A stretch of DNA of 13,675 bases from Chthonomonadales bacterium (lineage in GTDB: Bacteria > Armatimonadota > Chthonomonadetes > Chthonomonadales > Chthonomonadaceae): contig JBBQPO010000164.1 in the NCBI GenBank assembly GCA_038217285.1, positions 1 through 13,675 of the forward strand. Direction: 5' to 3'. The notes beneath the pieces are model-generated. The model had not been told where the DNA came from. It searched no databases and saw nothing but the letters and a program-made list of their open reading frames with translations. Shown piece after piece: positions 3,001 to 8,627 of the stretch; the first letter of the stretch is position 1; every line of letters begins with the position of its first letter. A program made the position numbers and the translations under genes.

Positions 3001-4212
3001 CTATTTCTTTGCCCGTACCCGCTTTTTCGGGGCGACAGGCGCGTTGCCGAGCAGTTTCCGGATCGGCTCCCGCAGCGTATCGAGAACGATGTATTCGCCT
3101 GTCTGAGTGTCACGGTAGTACCAGTGTTCCCAGCCGTTGCAGGAGGGTTTCCCGAGGCACTGCGCTGCGACCTTGTGAATGGAGCCGCGCAGGCTGCCAC
3201 AGACCACCGTCGCATCCTCCTGAACGTGGGCAAAATGCTCCGTACGGTCCAGGCGCAGTTCCGTGCCATACGCGATCAGGCCATGCTCCAGCAGCATTCC
3301 GAACGGCACCTTGATTTTGGGTGTGTCCAGCGGTGGTGGCAAGAGCTCGTCGGGAATCAGCGGCGGCACGACATGGCCGATGCGGTCCGCGGCCAGACGC
3401 GCGTAGTGCTCTTCGCGCTCGATCCCCACCCAGTTGCGGCCCAGCTTTTTTGCGACCGCTCCTGTCGTCCCAGTTCCAAAGAACGGGTCGAGCACGACAT
3501 CGCCCTTATTGGTGCAGGCGCGGATAATCCGGTGCAGCAGCGCTTCGGGTTTCTGGGTGTTATGGGCCTTCTCACCGTTATGTTTCAGGCGTTCGCCCCC
3601 CGTGCAGAGCGGAATATGCCAGTCGCTGCGCATCTGAAGGTCGTCGTTGCCCGCTTTCAACGTCTTGTAGTTGAAGGTATAGCCCGTCTGTTTTTCCGCC
3701 TTCGATACCCAGAGCAACGTCTCGTGCGCGTTGCAAAAACGCGTTCCGCGGAAATTCGGCATCGGATTGGTCTTCGTCCAGACGATGTCGTTCAGGATCC
3801 AGTAGCCGAGATCCTGAAGGATGGACCCGACGCGGTAGATATTATGATAGGATCCGATCACCCAGAGTGTGCCGTTGTCTTTCAGCACGGTGCGGCAGGC
3901 CGCCAGCCATTCCCTGGTGAAATGGTCGTACTCTTCCAGACTCAGAAACTTGTCCCAATCGTCATCGACGGCATCGACGTGCGTCATGTTCGGACGCCAT
4001 AACTCATGGCGCAACTGGAGATTGTAGGGCGGGTCCGCAAAGATGAGATCGACCGAGCCTGCTGGCAGGGTCTTCAACAGATCACGGCAGTCGCCTACGA
4101 GAACGGTGTTCAAGGGCAGATCGTCGAGGTTTTTTTCTCCGGACATAGTTCGTCTATTTGGCTCTTTCAAGGGGATTGTTTGGCGCGGTTTCGCGGTCAC
4201 GCCCTCCGACAT
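3001..4212 (-). CDS. ccrM: CcrM/M.HinfI-like beta-class N6-adenine DNA methyltransferase, predicted target GANTC, orphan
   Basis: DLIFADPPYNLQL precedes the SAM motif LDPFFGTGTT (beta order). It has the CcrM-typical blocks VDAVDDDWD, WVIGSYHNI, NPMPNFRGTRF.NAHETL, QMRSDW.IPLCTG.ER and TQKPEALL, plus the C-terminal domain GSIH...CNGW..W. RBS GAGGAG at 4229-4224; alternative start at 4146. Confidence 0.9.
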   Translation of the reverse strand: MSEGVTAKPRQTIPLKEPNRRTMSGEKNLDDLPLNTVLVGDCRDLLKTLPAGSVDLIFADPPYNLQLRHELWRPNMTHVDAVDDDWDKFLSLEEYDHFTREWLAACRTVLKDNGTLWVIGSYHNIYRVGSILQDLGYWILNDIVWTKTNPMPNFRGTRFCNAHETLLWVSKAEKQTGYTFNYKTLKAGNDDLQMRSDWHIPLCTGGERLKHNGEKAHNTQKPEALLHRIIRACTNKGDVVLDPFFGTGTTGAVAKKLGRNWVGIEREEHYARLAADRIGHVVPPLIPDELLPPPLDTPKIKVPFGMLLEHGLIAYGTELRLDRTEHFAHVQEDATVVCGSLRGSIHKVAAQCLGKPSCNGWEHWYYRDTQTGEYIVLDTLREPIRKLLGNAPVAPKKRVRAKK

Positions 4213-4278
4213 TCGCCAGGAATCTCCTCGTTTCCTCCCTTCTCCTGCGTCTTTAACTCTGTTTAATTGTCAGGGACT

Positions 4279-4354
4279 GAGTCCGAGTGAGTCTGGTTGA
4301 TTCCAACTGATTCTTACTGTGAGTCGTTCACACTCGCTGCGCGTTGCAGGAATC
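4279..4354. promoter_or_regulatory. Cluster of GANTC methylation sites
   Basis: GAGTC 4279, GAGTC 4289, GATTC 4299, GATTC 4309, GAGTC 4321, GAATC 4350. A further GAATC sits at 4220. Confidence 0.8.
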
Positions 4355-4495
4355 CAAAATATTTTTTTTCGTACCGGGGTAAACTTAAGGCGTCGCGAGC
4401 GTCGCAAACGACGTCGCCAAAAATATTCTACCCAAGACGACACTTTTTCGATGCCTGTCTCGTCGTCATGGGAGAAGGACATCACGGAATAGGCC

Positions 4496-5083
4496 ATGCC
4501 CACCGCTCCGATAGAGACGCATTGTGAGACACCGTACGAAAAACGTCTGGTCGCGCGCCTTCAGGCGGGCGAGGCCGAGGCGCTGAGCGCATTGTTCGAC
4601 CTGCATGTGGATCGCGTGTTCGCCTTTGCGCGTCACCTTATGGGCAGTCGCGAAGATGCCGAAGAAGTCGTTTCAGAAGCGTTCCTGAGAGCCTTTCAGC
4701 GTGCCGCCGCCTTTCGGGGCGAATGTCCTTTTCGGGGCTGGCTGTTCGGCATTACGCGCAACCTGTGCGTGGATCGGCTGCGACAGCCGCGCCTGATGCT
4801 GCTGGAGCCAGAGGCGTTCGAACGCCATACCGATGGAGGGCAGGCCGCCGCGCAGATGGAGACGGGTCTGGTGGTGCGCCAGGCTCTCGACCAACTGTCG
4901 GAAGAGCATCGACTGGTGCTGACCCTGTGCGATGTCGAAGAGTGGGATGCGCATGAAGTCGCGGCCATGCTCGAAAAGTCGCTGCCTGCTACCAAGTCAC
5001 TGCTGTACCGGGCGCGGCGCGCCCTGCGAACGCAGTTGACCACCCTGTGGGACGAAGAAGAGGAGATGCACGATGCGCTGTGA
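4496..5083 (+). CDS. ECF-type RNA polymerase sigma-70 factor (1)
   Basis: Region 2 (DAEEVVSEAFLRAF...FRGWLFGITRNLCVDRLR) and region 4 (LSEEHRLVL...EVAAML...TKSLLYRARRALR); 195 aa. Confidence 0.92.
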   Translation: MPTAPIETHCETPYEKRLVARLQAGEAEALSALFDLHVDRVFAFARHLMGSREDAEEVVSEAFLRAFQRAAAFRGECPFRGWLFGITRNLCVDRLRQPRLMLLEPEAFERHTDGGQAAAQMETGLVVRQALDQLSEEHRLVLTLCDVEEWDAHEVAAMLEKSLPATKSLLYRARRALRTQLTTLWDEEEEMHDAL

Positions 5084-5369
5084 AGAGATACGCTCGCTGC
5101 TCGACGCACATCTGGAGAATGAGCTGCCGGAGGAGTTGAATCGTCGGGTCGAGCGCCACCTCCTGCGGTGCCCCTCCTGCTCCTACGAGGCCCGGACTCT
5201 CGAACAGACCCGCGCCATGCTCCGCGAAGCCGTTCCGCCTGCCGTCACGACACCGGGCTTCCGAGAACGTGCGGTCGCGCGCCTCCTCGATGCCCTCCCC
5301 GAGCTGCACCCTGTACGCGACAGCGCTGCTGCCAGGCAGTGGTCCCTTCCGTTCTCGCGCGAGGAATAA
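5073..5369 (+). CDS. Soluble zf-HC2 (ZAS) anti-sigma factor
   Basis: MRCEEIRSLLDAHLENEL...HLLRCPSC contains HxxxCxxC. It overlaps the sigma stop by 11 nt, has RBS GAGGAG and shows no transmembrane segment. Confidence 0.88.
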   Translation: MRCEEIRSLLDAHLENELPEELNRRVERHLLRCPSCSYEARTLEQTRAMLREAVPPAVTTPGFRERAVARLLDALPELHPVRDSAAARQWSLPFSREE

Positions 5370-5449
5370 GCTGTTTCTAATGGTCTCCGTGAACCGTCCG
5401 CGTCCCTGCTGGCTCCATAACAGTGAACCGTTGAGGAAAGGGAACGCCT

Positions 5450-6055
5450 GTGAGAGAAAGCTGGCTGATATGGCGCATACGGCGAGGCGATAAGCGAGCC
5501 GGGGAGGAGTTTGTCGCTGCAAACTATCCTCGTATCTTTCGGCTGCTGCGCTTCCTGACGGGTCGAACGGACATTGCCGAGGATCTCACCCAGCAGACGT
5601 TCGTTCGGGCCTGGCAGGCTCTCCCCAACTTCCGGCATCAGTCGAGCCTTTCGACATGGCTGCACCGTATCGCCTACCATGAGTACACGCACTGGCTGCG
5701 TGACCGCCACGAACACGCCTCCCTCGACGCCGCCGTTCACCTTGCCGCTCCTCTGGCCTGCCACGAGTGGGAAACGCTCGTTTTGCCCCGGGCCCTTGCC
5801 CAGCTCACGCCGGAACACCGGGAGGCTTTTCTCCTCTATCATGTTCAGGAGTTCTCCATAGGGGAGGTCGCGGCTATCCTGGAGGTGCCGGGAGGCACTG
5901 TCAAGTCCCGACTTTTTACCGCCCGCCAGCGCCTCCGCGAACTCCTGGAAACGGAATCCGCGTCGGTCGAACTCGCTCTCCCCGCCCCGCGTCCTGCCAC
6001 CCTCGCGGTCGCGCCACCGCAGAAGGAGATTCTCCATGAACTGTCATCACATTAA
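5450..6055 (+). CDS. ECF-type RNA polymerase sigma-70 factor (2)
   Basis: GTG start with GAGGAAAGGG upstream. Region 2 (AEDLTQQTFVRAW...STWLHRIA) and region 4 (EVAAILEVPGGTVKSRLFTARQRLR). Confidence 0.92.
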   Translation: MRESWLIWRIRRGDKRAGEEFVAANYPRIFRLLRFLTGRTDIAEDLTQQTFVRAWQALPNFRHQSSLSTWLHRIAYHEYTHWLRDRHEHASLDAAVHLAAPLACHEWETLVLPRALAQLTPEHREAFLLYHVQEFSIGEVAAILEVPGGTVKSRLFTARQRLRELLETESASVELALPAPRPATLAVAPPQKEILHELSSH

Positions 6056-7670
6056 ACAGAGCGGCAAACCTGCCAGTTGGCTGCACTCCCTCGTCTGCCG
6101 CGATTGCCGAATGTCCCAGCGCACCGACGATCTCCTTGCCTTCGGCATTGTTCAACTGCGAAACCAGTCATTTACGCATTCTGCTCTCAATCGCACACTG
6201 GCCGCTCTGGAACTTTCTTCCATCAGGGAGGACTACGCCCGCCGGCAGCGTTTGCGCCAGCGAGCGCTCAGGCGTCTCACTGCCGCTGCGACCGTAATCG
6301 TGGGTATTATCGGTTGGCTGCATTATATGGATTGGATGCCTGCCGAACTGCCCAGTTCTGCTCCGCAACAAGAGACGAGTCGCTACACTGCGTTAGCGGC
6401 GCGAGTTGAAGGGCGAAACCGCAATTTCGGTCCGATCTTTAAGGCGATCCAGGTCCTGGAAGATCCCCCTAAATCGCACCCGGCTCTGCAAACCGATACG
6501 CTCGGTCGATTCGTCGCCGATAATGCGCCGTCGCTGCGTATACTGTGCGCAGACCTTACGACGCCGTATCACGAGAGAATCCTGCGCAGAAGTCAGGATC
6601 AAACCTTGGGTGTTTTCCGTGTCCAGCCTCTCTTCGCGCTGCTTCAGGCGGACGCCGTCTGGAAGGCCTCGCAGGGAGACCGCTCCGGGGGGATCGAAGC
6701 GGCGCTGAAACTGGTTGCGTTCAGCCAGAACATAGCGGGTGGAGGCTCTTACCTCACGCATCGGGTGGGAACAGAGTGGCAAAATCGAGGCCGGCGACTG
6801 GTGTGGCGCCTTCTGCCGGACATGTCGGCCGAAGAGGCGCTTCAGGCTTGTAAGCAGATGGAAGCAATACGGGAGCGCCATGCTCCCCTCCTCGCCATGT
6901 TAAGATGGGAGCGCGATTCGGGTGTGTCTGTACGACGGAACCTGCTTCTCACACCGGACTGGAGATGGAATATCGCGAATGATTTTGTACGGCGGGATTC
7001 GGTGCTGCCGGGGGTTGAACGTCTCCTGACGGCGGCCAGTCTCTACACGCTCAGCAACCGACGTATCCTACAGAACTACTACGCTGAAATGGACAAAGTC
7101 GAGACGGATTGGAGCAGACCTTATACTTCCGGTGATGCACTGCCGAGTGCCGAACCACGGGACCGAATCAATCAAATGCTTGAGTACGGCGGTGAGAACG
7201 CTGATCCTTCCAGCCCTGCCTTTCCAGGGCCCCGCTTCAGAGACGCCCAGAACGAAACGCAGAATGCACTGCTGGCTGCCGCCCTCGCGCTCCACGCCTA
7301 TCGCCTGGAGCACGGCGCTTATCCTCCCACCCTGCAGGCACTGTGCCCGAAGTATCTTTCCGAGGTTCCGGCAGACCCCTTCAAGCCAGAGACAGTTCTC
7401 CGCTATGTCCAGGCTCACGCCAAGTTCTTCTCCCAGGACGAAGCGACGCGGGTTGATGCGGGATCGAAATCGTTCGATGGGACCGTTACGTTCCCGCCGT
7501 ATCTGCTCTACTCAGTCGGGCCCGACGGTGTAGACCAGCACGGCGCCATCATCGTCCGAAAACCGCAGCCTTACAATCCGAAAGCTTCTTCGCAACCGAT
7601 GTCGTTCTCCGAAGCCTGCAGAGTTATGGCCGACAGCAAGGGTGATATCATAGCGGGAGTCAACTTCTGA
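6036..7670 (+). CDS. Putative membrane-anchored anti-sigma factor with N-terminal zinc motif and C-terminal GspG-like motif
   Basis: N-terminus MNC...HSLVCRDC contains HxxxCxxC, followed by one hydrophobic helix (LTAAATVIVGIIGWL) after an Arg-rich stretch. The C-terminus reads ALHAYRLEHGAYPPTLQAL.P.YL...PADPF...LYSVGPDGVD. It overlaps sigma 2 by 20 nt and has RBS AAGGAG. Confidence 0.7.
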   Translation: MNCHHIKQSGKPASWLHSLVCRDCRMSQRTDDLLAFGIVQLRNQSFTHSALNRTLAALELSSIREDYARRQRLRQRALRRLTAAATVIVGIIGWLHYMDWMPAELPSSAPQQETSRYTALAARVEGRNRNFGPIFKAIQVLEDPPKSHPALQTDTLGRFVADNAPSLRILCADLTTPYHERILRRSQDQTLGVFRVQPLFALLQADAVWKASQGDRSGGIEAALKLVAFSQNIAGGGSYLTHRVGTEWQNRGRRLVWRLLPDMSAEEALQACKQMEAIRERHAPLLAMLRWERDSGVSVRRNLLLTPDWRWNIANDFVRRDSVLPGVERLLTAASLYTLSNRRILQNYYAEMDKVETDWSRPYTSGDALPSAEPRDRINQMLEYGGENADPSSPAFPGPRFRDAQNETQNALLAAALALHAYRLEHGAYPPTLQALCPKYLSEVPADPFKPETVLRYVQAHAKFFSQDEATRVDAGSKSFDGTVTFPPYLLYSVGPDGVDQHGAIIVRKPQPYNPKASSQPMSFSEACRVMADSKGDIIAGVNF

Positions 7671-7878: not shown

Positions 7879-8286
7879 TCAGCGTAAGACCTCCAGCATA
7901 GATCCATCGGAAAGGCGGTAGATGTAGAAGTCGCTGTCGGTCGTGAAGACGCGTCGGAAACCGCGAATATCGGCCACAGCGACCAGGGAGGAATCGGCAA
8001 AATCCATCGGAACGTTCTGGTATTGTTGCATCAGGGAGTCCATCCGCTCGGTTTCCAGGGCTGTGATGTCCAGAACGATAAGTCTTCCAGCTTTATAAGT
8101 TCGCCACAGCCTATTCTGATATCGATAACCTCCGAGCCCGTGCAAGAGGTACATAGCTTCGGTCATGCACGGCCATGTCGTGACAAGCGGTCCATACGGT
8201 AGGTTGCGGAGAATGGCGGTACAGTTCGCATGATGCTTATCGTCCTCATCGAACAGCGCAATGAGCGGTCCCGTATCCGTCAGCAC
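7879..8286 (-). CDS. vapC: PIN-domain (VapC-family) toxin
   Basis: GTG start; MLTDTGPLIAL..., TTWPCMTEA, MDFADSSLVAVA and VFTTDSDF supply the PIN acidic residues; 135 aa. It overlaps the antitoxin stop (GTGCTGA). Confidence 0.9.
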   Translation of the reverse strand: MLTDTGPLIALFDEDDKHHANCTAILRNLPYGPLVTTWPCMTEAMYLLHGLGGYRYQNRLWRTYKAGRLIVLDITALETERMDSLMQQYQNVPMDFADSSLVAVADIRGFRRVFTTDSDFYIYRLSDGSMLEVLR

Positions 8287-8567
8287 CCCTCCTGCTCCTC
8301 ACGATATTTTTGAAGCAGACGCTCCTCAAACTTATGGCTGGTTTCTACCGAGAGATTGGCACCACCAGAAACAAACTCACTACTATGGAGTCCACCTATA
8401 TAGCCAGCAAAGAAATCCGCCATCGACACGGTTTCATTCGCAGGTATTGGAGGCAACAGCAGGCTGCGCAGTTTTTCCAGCGTCAGAAGTTCCGGCGTGG
8501 TACCTTGCTGTTGCGCCTGCTCCCTAACGACCTGTTCCAGTTCCGGCGGAAGGGTAATAGTGACCAT
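8280..8567 (-). CDS. Putative antitoxin of the PIN toxin
   Basis: ATG 8567 with RBS GAGGAG (8580-8575). The N-terminus MVTITLPPELEQVVREQAQQQGTTPE is ribbon-helix-helix-like; 95 aa; coupled to the toxin gene. Confidence 0.75.
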   Translation of the reverse strand: MVTITLPPELEQVVREQAQQQGTTPELLTLEKLRSLLLPPIPANETVSMADFFAGYIGGLHSSEFVSGGANLSVETSHKFEERLLQKYREEQEGC

Positions 8568-8612
8568 CCGGCAACTCCTCTCGTAAGTAAAATGCAAGCA
8601 TGGTTGGCTCTC

Positions 8613-8627
8613 TTCATTATACATGAA
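8613..8627 (-). promoter_or_regulatory. TA promoter -10 with overlapping palindrome
   Basis: TATAAT on the minus strand (8621-8616) overlaps TTCAT-N5-ATGAA; no good -35 is visible. Confidence 0.5.

Follow-up and report, generated by a model that had tools for sequence, protein, structure and literature searches.

In the Chthonomonadaceae (Armatimonadota), a little-studied family of soil and hot springs, the gene of an orphan CcrM-type DNA methyltransferase is preceded by a phased array of copies of the enzyme's own predicted target, GANTC. The array is described here for the window, a stretch of 13,675 nucleotides from a Chthonomonadales bacterium of this family (assembly GCA_038217285.1, contig JBBQPO010000164.1), in which it lies between the methyltransferase gene and a divergent ECF sigma factor gene. 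It is very probable that the array is a protein-binding regulatory array of the methyltransferase gene. Its sensitivity to methylation is rather probable, and on balance we favour the view that it is a methylation-sensing cis-regulatory element, read by a candidate oligomeric protein, through which the methyltransferase would feed back on its own transcription. The first-pass annotation of the region, made from the sequence alone, knew of no such array for this family; likewise, the literature searched, which left most subscription-journal papers uncovered, yielded neither a report of a phased array of GANTC or TGAKTC nor one of CcrM regulation in Armatimonadota.

A phased array of oriented hexamers and its conservation

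Seven GANTC sites (GAATC at 4220, GAGTC at 4279 and 4289, GATTC at 4299 and 4309, GAGTC at 4321 and GAATC at 4350) lie upstream of the methyltransferase gene, and the five from 4279 to 4321 are preceded by T, giving TGANTC at 4278, 4288, 4298, 4308 and 4320. The first-pass annotation had these coordinates exactly, together with the 10-bp period of four of the five TGANTC copies, and spoke of seven sites in 135 bp; the positions are right, but the sites at 4220 and 4350 fall outside the phased module. The core of the module (4278..4313, minus strand) consists of four units that read TGAKTC-N4 on the plus strand and GAMTCA-N4 in the methyltransferase orientation, in a register shared by 12 related loci. 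The distal fifth unit, TGAGTC (4318..4332, with its GANTC at 4321), stands 12 bp from the fourth, and the same offset occurs in L001, L002, L003, L015, L006, L008 and L009 of the related loci introduced below. This unit is centred in a TGTGA-N5-TCACA inverted repeat, which is also present in L001, L002, L003 and L015 and, judged by eye, nearly so in L006; the repeat may be a separate site for a dimeric factor, overlapping one methylation site. The phased units are located 133–179 bp upstream of the methyltransferase start codon and midway in a shared intergenic region of 349 bp, at 171–217 bp from the start of the ECF sigma gene. Both remaining sites are kept only in the closest relatives. The single GAATC at 4220..4224 precedes the start codon by 74 bp, in what is presumably the leader or the promoter-proximal region, and persists as GANTC with an altered N (GATTC or GAATC in the methyltransferase orientation) only in L001, L002, L003 and L015. 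The outlying GAATC at 4350..4354, on the far side of the array and without the form of a unit, is found in L001 and L015 and is replaced or absent in L002 and L003. A run of eight T occupies 4362-4369 in the window, and in most related loci, some of which lack the ECF neighbour, a run of six to nine T (gene orientation) precedes the array by 25–35 bp.

GANTC is scarce across the whole window yet clustered at the array. The window contains 51 GANTC sites, or one per 268 bp, versus 75.9 ± 7.9 in dinucleotide shuffles (n = 200), every one of which had at least 51. Among 2000 shuffles, two reached five GANTC within 47 bp and six reached seven within 135 bp, the shuffles used for these cluster tests containing more GANTC than the real window sequence. 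For four TGANTC spaced exactly 10 bp apart the expectation is 8e-9 per window (both strands, base composition), and one such series was seen, at 4278. Tandem Repeats Finder returned no row at the array even at a minimum score of 30, because only six of each ten bases repeat and the spacers differ, which agrees with the variable bases between units remarked on in the first-pass annotation. A permissive search of Rfam with 3900..4700 gave no matches up to E = 1, and the presence of a non-coding RNA at the array was rejected on this ground.

The named relatives from a protein search belong to Chthonomonadaceae, Armatimonadia and Chloroflexia, and a scan of genome contigs with the methyltransferase yielded 80 loci. 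Fifteen of these (L001-L015, 73–95% identity) come from assemblies assigned to Chthonomonadaceae, Chthonomonadales, Chthonomonas or Armatimonadota, and are referred to as the Chthonomonadaceae loci. The other 65 (53–62% identity) represent Chloroflexota, Bacteroidota, other Armatimonadota, Alphaproteobacteria and further groups; outside Alphaproteobacteria, CcrM-like proteins have been reported in 'sporadic species and clades', some Chloroflexi included (PMC3973325). Absence of the array from orthologous loci had been named as a reason to abandon the idea, and it was not what we observed: the module is present upstream of the methyltransferase gene in all 15 Chthonomonadaceae loci. Alignment of the upstream regions showed that the sites and the 10-bp spacing are conserved in 12 of them (L001-L011 and L015), which have three to six GANTC at this spacing, gene-oriented and 110–215 bp before the start codon. 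Six perfectly phased units are found in each of L005, L007 and L011, the first of which is a metagenome-assembled genome assigned to the cultured species Chthonomonas calidirosea. The remaining three loci carry reduced versions located farther from the gene (range 320–390 bp), with three units at -394 in L013, two at -329 in L014 and one at about -324 in L012; these units are followed by TTGATA or TTACCA, an A-rich stretch and a long leader. The long leader of L014 is open in frame with the methyltransferase, and those of L012 and L013 are not. None of the 65 distant loci has a phased array.

Enrichment of GANTC in the 300 bp upstream of the gene (Poisson p <1e-3) was detected in 16 of 81 sequences, 14 of which are Chthonomonadaceae, the window included; L005 and L010 miss this threshold. 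Outside the phased units, L012, L013 and L014 have six, eight and five GANTC in the 300 bp before the gene versus 0.45–0.53 expected, and the N of these leader sites is unrestricted (12 of the 19 have G or T and 7 have A or C, counted manually). This leader enrichment is an independent sign of selection on GANTC itself. The two sequences outside the Chthonomonadaceae that pass the threshold are the Rhodospirillaceae-like L024 and L025. In these two and in L040, of the same kind, the 90 bp immediately preceding the methyltransferase hold three to five GANTC, unphased and in mixed orientations, with a 5' T on every clustered GANTC in L024 and L025 and on two of three in L040. Here, target sites are clustered before a ccrM orthologue for a second time, independently of the Chthonomonadaceae.

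Among the methyltransferase cores, about eight lineages can be distinguished, grouped by inspection of core identities and not from a tree, with 75–88% identity between them. The 100-bp leaders compared between lineages are 47–64% identical, which is about noise under that scoring. To follow the units themselves, a register-slot profile was made for seven lineage representatives, with 10-base slots counted back from the promoter-proximal unit and GANTC not required. Among the 35 slots, 28 contain GANTC and 25 contain GAMTCA. The information content reaches 0.85–1.41 bits at each of the six motif positions and 0.10–0.64 bits at the four spacer positions, while identity between lineages in the same representatives is 73% for the five fixed motif positions and 38% for the spacers. 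The motif is kept while the spacers and flanks diverge to noise, and this indicates selection, not mere shared descent.

The array also keeps its gene when its other neighbour changes. The ECF sigma gene is present in 7 of the 13 array-bearing sequences (the window, L001, L002, L003, L006, L009 and L015) and absent from the other six, where the upstream genes are fabF and Uma2 (L004), a nucleoside symporter (L005), an IS110 transposase (L007), a glycosyl hydrolase (L008), fabF (L010) and a PhyH family gene (L011). Whatever the neighbour, the start codon follows 119–150 bp after the proximal unit and the orientation to the methyltransferase is kept; the array therefore belongs to the methyltransferase and not to the divergent ECF sigma gene. 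In L007, the IS110-family transposase gene lies at 296-1624, upstream of the array, and all six units are intact. Within 1.29 Mb (the window and the loci, both strands) GAMTCA-N4-GAMTCA is confined to these upstream regions and always in gene orientation, with the exception of two single pairs, at -1435 in L008 and at -8046 in L019. Similar clusters, which if common genome-wide would have told against a special role, amount within this 1.29 Mb to two stray pairs. The anatomy, conservation, orientation and linkage of the array may be regarded as established.

The conserved unit is the oriented hexamer, TGAKTC on the plus strand or GAMTCA in gene orientation, with its N4 spacer, and not bare GANTC. 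The first-pass annotation described an array of GANTC; those sites are real and conserved, but GANTC alone is not what is conserved. In gene orientation 66 of 71 array sites have A or C at N, versus A160 C91 G82 T150 in 483 background sites from the same sequences, and GANTC is followed by A in 62 of 71 array sites versus 98 of 483. Equivalent slots alternate between A and C at N from genome to genome and almost never have G or T. For CcrM, rates at the four central bases were reported to vary 'close to the experimental fluctuations' (PMC3287173). An enzyme that is indifferent at N and methylates both strands cannot explain the restricted N and the single orientation, and these two features therefore imply a separate, orientation-sensitive reader. 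The sole characterised reader of methylated GANTC is, to our knowledge, GcrA, which has been described for Alphaproteobacteria. GcrA prefers YGAKTCK, with the consensus TGATTCG (PMC4647560). On the strand opposite the gene, YGAKTCN is matched by 64 of 66 array sites versus 240 of 978 background strand-readings, and the full YGAKTCK by 40 of 66 versus 135 of 978; in the seven lineage representatives alone the counts are 35 of 37 and 21 of 37, respectively. The array unit shares the asymmetry of the GcrA motif, and we treat this resemblance as a lead.

The methyltransferase and the candidate promoter

The gene at 3001..4146 of the minus strand encodes a CcrM-orthologous N6-adenine DNA methyltransferase of 381 amino acids with predicted GANTC specificity, as judged from Pfam and from the comparison with Caulobacter CcrM (6PBD). 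An N6_N4_Mtase domain (PF01555, 1.8e-70) covers profile positions 1-220 of 221, and the C-terminal RAMA domain (PF18755, 5.5e-13) is of a SAND-like, non-specific DNA-binding kind that CcrM enzymes require for activity. The match to 6PBD (E 5.7e-133) extends over residues 35-385 of a 403-amino-acid open reading frame, reaches chain residue 362 of 366 and aligns the DPPY motifs of the two proteins. Residues R44, P45, DPPY, Y93, H94, K118, M122, P123, R129, H134, E135, R179, K187, T191 and K193 are identical to 6PBD, and so are S315, W332 and R350 of the C-terminal domain; the identities were read by eye from the alignment, and native numbering was taken as the chain index minus 8, by our own derivation. 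Among them is the whole set responsible for reading G1, A2, T4 and C5 in the target strand (R44, P45, Y93, H94, K118, M122, P123, R129, R179, K187, T191 and K193). The identical residues include each catalytic or base-contacting one that is named in PMC6787082. By these sequence features the protein is a CcrM-family member with the full CcrM architecture, and its family may be counted as established. GANTC specificity is a strong inference from this orthology, and the earlier prediction of the target appears sound. The start codon is most likely the ATG at 4146. The ATG of the longest open reading frame, at 4212, was rejected, as a 94%-identical relative has 381 amino acids and upstream in-frame stops occur in six of seven relatives examined.

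In the window the methyltransferase is accompanied by pth, a NurA-domain gene and the ECF sigma gene, none of which is a restriction enzyme gene; it is an orphan, with no cognate restriction enzyme gene adjacent. The synteny with pth is kept in 12 of the 15 Chthonomonadaceae loci. The Uma2 gene upstream in L004 belongs to a 'putative restriction endonuclease' family, which is not a known HinfI-type partner. In 217 kb (the window and L001-L015) GANTC has an observed-to-expected ratio of 0.72, the third lowest among 16 motifs of like form; this depletion, like that in the window, bears on methylation of GANTC in vivo only indirectly. Under-representation of GANTC genome-wide, with over-representation in intergenic regions, has been reported for CcrM-bearing Alphaproteobacteria (PMC3973325). 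Lower ratios than that of GANTC were obtained in the same 217 kb for CTNAG (0.48) and GGNCC (0.50), which suggests other restriction-modification pressures in Chthonomonadaceae.

The slot that follows the proximal unit, at the next 10-bp step, contains a -35-like hexamer, cTGACA (4263..4268, minus strand; TTGACA or TTGATA in relatives), beyond which there is an A-rich stretch at about 4245..4262. The sequence (C/T)TGAYA occupies this slot in 12 of the 13 array-bearing sequences and also in L013. Plausible sigma-70 pairs were noticed by eye 35–60 bp further downstream: TTGCAG-N18-CATAAT in L007, TTGCGG-N18-CATAAT in L011, TGGAGA-N17-GAAAAT in L004 and TAGGCA-N17-GAAAAT in L010. Relative to the core promoter the array would be on the upstream side, between about -45 and -100, or between about -65 and -120 if the downstream sigma-70 pairs are used. 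Activators and architectural proteins are usually located at such upstream positions. Other candidate elements were set aside. An IHF-like reading of TTGATA and the A-rich tract fails, when compared with the IHF consensus, in the TTGACA variants, the window included; the elements of an ECF-type promoter for the sigma gene (GGAATC or GTAAAC, then a CGTC-like sequence) are not jointly conserved in L001, L002, L003 and L015. The region upstream of groEL was uninformative as a local promoter guide, as the stretch appears to be coding, and a terminator-like match at 4140..4152 was disregarded because it overlaps the start codon.

Proposed mechanism and alternative explanations

Four parts of the mechanism are inferred: that the units are methylated, that a reader exists, where the promoter lies and which sign the feedback has. 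The element is the array itself, three to six head-to-tail TGAKTC hexamers with an exact 10-bp period that stop one slot before the -35-like TTGAYA. The methyltransferase would add N6-methyl groups in the major groove, two per unit. A putative sequence-specific protein would bind the units cooperatively and head to tail, more or less on a single face of the helix; with a helical repeat of about 10.5 bp, the 10.0-bp period leads to a drift of about 2.5 bp over five units. Since each unit holds both adenines methylated by the gene product, this binding should depend on methylation state and would vary between unmethylated, hemimethylated and fully methylated units. Transcription of the methyltransferase gene would thereby track the completeness of chromosome methylation, and several cooperative sites would make the response steep. 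In the homeostatic version, the bound protein would activate transcription when the array is under-methylated, e.g., just after replication, and full methylation would release it. Negative feedback, to which we subscribe only tentatively, is favoured because the array stands upstream of the promoter and because homeostasis is what an orphan maintenance enzyme requires. A positive-feedback or bistable version is conceivable but unlikely.

Several observations weigh against this mechanism. Individual units lack GANTC in L003, L004, L009 and L010, and no single unit is therefore essential. The fixed 5' T and the K at N would be equally expected from a transcription factor site blind to methylation, and the chance of an accidental agreement with the GcrA motif is, by our own estimate, roughly 1 in 4 to 1 in 8. 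Neither the inspection by eye, which covered every locus and showed no consistent -10 at 16–18 bp downstream of TTGAYA, nor the sigma-70 consensus scan of 4050..4600, which gave no promoters, supplied a partner for the candidate -35. The proposed sign of the feedback comes solely from analogy and from the upstream position of the array. The literature reached contained no methylome, transcription start or binding data for these organisms, and the only paper found to mention both GANTC and this phylum, a preprint, reports GANTC methylation in the class Fimbriimonadia and not in other Armatimonadota classes, its sampling of Chthonomonadaceae being unstated.

The most serious alternative, in our opinion unlikely but deserving real weight, is that the array is an operator whose TGAKTC direct repeats are read by a transcription factor regardless of methylation, e.g., a winged-helix response regulator bound head to tail, with GANTC being incidental. 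Specific positions beyond GANTC, the fixed orientation and the loss of GANTC from some units are all compatible with such a factor, and hexamer direct repeats with a 10–11 bp period just upstream of -35 are the classic OmpR/PhoB layout. It would be a coincidence on this explanation, however, that the four invariant positions of the hexamer are the exact target of the product of the gene that it precedes, and that the phased repeat is essentially restricted to the methyltransferase gene in 1.29 Mb. The leaders of L012-L014 are GANTC-rich with N unrestricted, and GANTC is avoided elsewhere. Furthermore, an active enzyme would leave the two adenines of each unit methylated in the groove that the factor must read. 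A Gln residue of pED208 TraM hydrogen-bonds the adenine face of GANTC (PMC3159463), and in our judgement N6-methylation would disturb a contact of this type. The explanation by self-titration dispenses with a separate reader: the methyltransferase alone would recognise the array, and the cluster of substrates would hold the enzyme, or occlude it or RNA polymerase, until methylated. Each unit is indeed a predicted substrate, and methyltransferases that bind DNA to regulate their own genes are known, as with M.SsoII (PMC6100179). We nevertheless regard it as improbable. CcrM has no meaningful preference at N, yet N is restricted and the units are co-oriented, and methylation of a symmetric site on both strands accounts for neither. 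The CcrM dimer engages both strands around one site (PMC6787082), so that units 10 bp apart would, as we judge, not be occupied together; the protein has no additional DNA-binding domain beyond the CcrM architecture.

Two other explanations carry much less weight. Control of the divergent ECF sigma/anti-sigma operon instead of the methyltransferase would be in keeping with the location of the array midway in the shared intergenic region. It is very improbable, as that neighbour is missing from 6 of the 13 array-bearing sequences, which have five other kinds of upstream gene, with the distance and orientation to the methyltransferase remaining the same. We give practically no credence to neutral tandem duplication or chance clustering without function. 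Slippage can yield short-period repeats, and the number of units varies from one to six between genomes, but the spacing is far beyond the chance expectation given above. The copies are not alike along their full length, as reflected in the differing spacers and the blank result of Tandem Repeats Finder, and the motif has been retained across about eight lineages while the spacers and flanks diverged to noise.

Surrounding genes, related systems and significance

The divergent ECF sigma factor gene (4496..5083, plus strand; Pfam Sigma70_r2 and r4) shares the intergenic region and lies outside the module. It is followed by a zf-HC2 anti-sigma gene (5073-5369), a second ECF sigma gene (5450-6055) and an open reading frame of 544 amino acids (6036-7670) without a Pfam match. 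This cluster (4496-7670) is syntenic in L001, L002 and L003, and the L015 sequence ends before the last open reading frame. On the other side, pth and then the NurA-domain gene, together at 1148-2984 of the minus strand, are found directly downstream of the methyltransferase, in an order kept in L001-L003; a NurA nuclease adjoining an orphan methyltransferase is unusual. Further along the window, a PIN-domain open reading frame (7879-8286, minus strand) is preceded by an overlapping one of 114 amino acids (8280-8624) without a Pfam match, in a layout of the VapBC toxin-antitoxin type. No regulator gene linked to the locus was found among 16 sequences (the window and the 15 Chthonomonadaceae loci).

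The closest counterpart of the array is the alphaproteobacterial ccrM promoter, in which an orphan GANTC methyltransferase gene likewise bears its own target sites in the control region. This promoter is activated by CtrA and has GANTC sites near the transcript start. In the Hyphomicrobiales loci, one or two GANTC stand at about -76 to -79 and -69, beside TTAACCAT, a CtrA half-site. The sites in these promoters are one or two, unphased and without a common orientation, in contrast to the three to six oriented sites with exact 10-bp spacing found here in another phylum. The CtrA box TTAA-N7-TTAA has no matches in the whole window. In Caulobacter, expression of ccrM is reportedly subject to a 'minor influence' of a GANTC site in its promoter region (bioRxiv 10.1101/2024.03.01.583015). 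The GcrA motif has the same asymmetric extension of GANTC as the array unit, with a 5' pyrimidine (T here) and K at N. The effect of GcrA depends on GANTC methylation, and its sites are located around -20 or +2 to +30 of target promoters (PMC4647560). GcrA sites are single and near the transcription start, unlike the upstream array described here.

Clusters of GATC, the Dam target, at oriC, the dnaA promoter, agn43 and pap resemble the array in having several sites in a control region and an oligomeric reader dependent on methylation (SeqA, OxyR or Lrp). They differ in the motif, the enzyme family and the readers, and GATC is symmetric and not placed within oriented direct repeats. We know of no Dam-type cluster that forms a phased array upstream of the dam gene. 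SeqA reads symmetric GATC at sites spaced on helical turns. The repeated motif here, TGAKTC, is oriented and contains GANTC instead of GATC. The analogy with SeqA drawn in the first-pass annotation therefore fits poorly, as an oriented hexamer needs a sequence-specific reader bound head to tail. Of the other two readers, OxyR and Lrp are cited as binders dependent on methylation state (PMC4647560).

In layout only, the array is similar to the OmpR/PhoB-type arrays (ompF F1-F3, tor boxes, PHO boxes), which are head-to-tail hexamers with a period of 10–11 bp and a fixed orientation, located by the -35. Repeats of this type abut or overlap the -35, with their orientation fixed relative to the gene. 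No methylation motif is contained in those arrays, no response regulator is linked to the one described here, and its hexamer corresponds to no consensus known to us. In Streptomyces, PhoP sites are composed of 11-nt direct repeats (PMC2275107). TraM provides an example of a ribbon-helix-helix protein reading a GANTC array: pED208/R1 TraM reads four close GANTC on sbmA cooperatively, contacting the adenine face and G, the sites being symmetric and staggered, with the tetramer contacting motifs 12 bp apart and a 10-bp spacing abolishing binding (PMC3159463). That array belongs to a conjugation origin and is unconnected with methylation.

The array is a strongly selected, previously undescribed cis element of a kind already known, namely clusters of methylation sites in control regions. 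Gene control through CcrM methylation has been worked out almost exclusively in Alphaproteobacteria, where it proceeds via single GANTC sites with CtrA and GcrA. The Chthonomonadaceae element, in another phylum, is far more elaborate, with up to six oriented copies of the enzyme's own target, one per helical turn. Its multiple cooperative sites predict a switch-like response, compared with the weak effect of the Caulobacter site. The array is also a concrete bait sequence for a new methylation-state reader, and a change of K to M, which keeps GANTC and breaks the oriented motif, makes it possible to separate methylation only from reader plus methylation. It is a speculative proposal, and probably too bold, that a new, GcrA-independent N6-methyladenine reader, which oligomerises head to tail on phased TGAKTC, forms with the CcrM orthologue a self-contained epigenetic circuit. 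If it holds, the circuit would act as a timer coupled to replication, with the methyltransferase gene fired once in each cycle, or, should the reader prefer methylated DNA and activate, as a bistable on/off switch of genome-wide GANTC methylation. CcrM-type cell-cycle or phase control would then have arisen outside Alphaproteobacteria with different parts.

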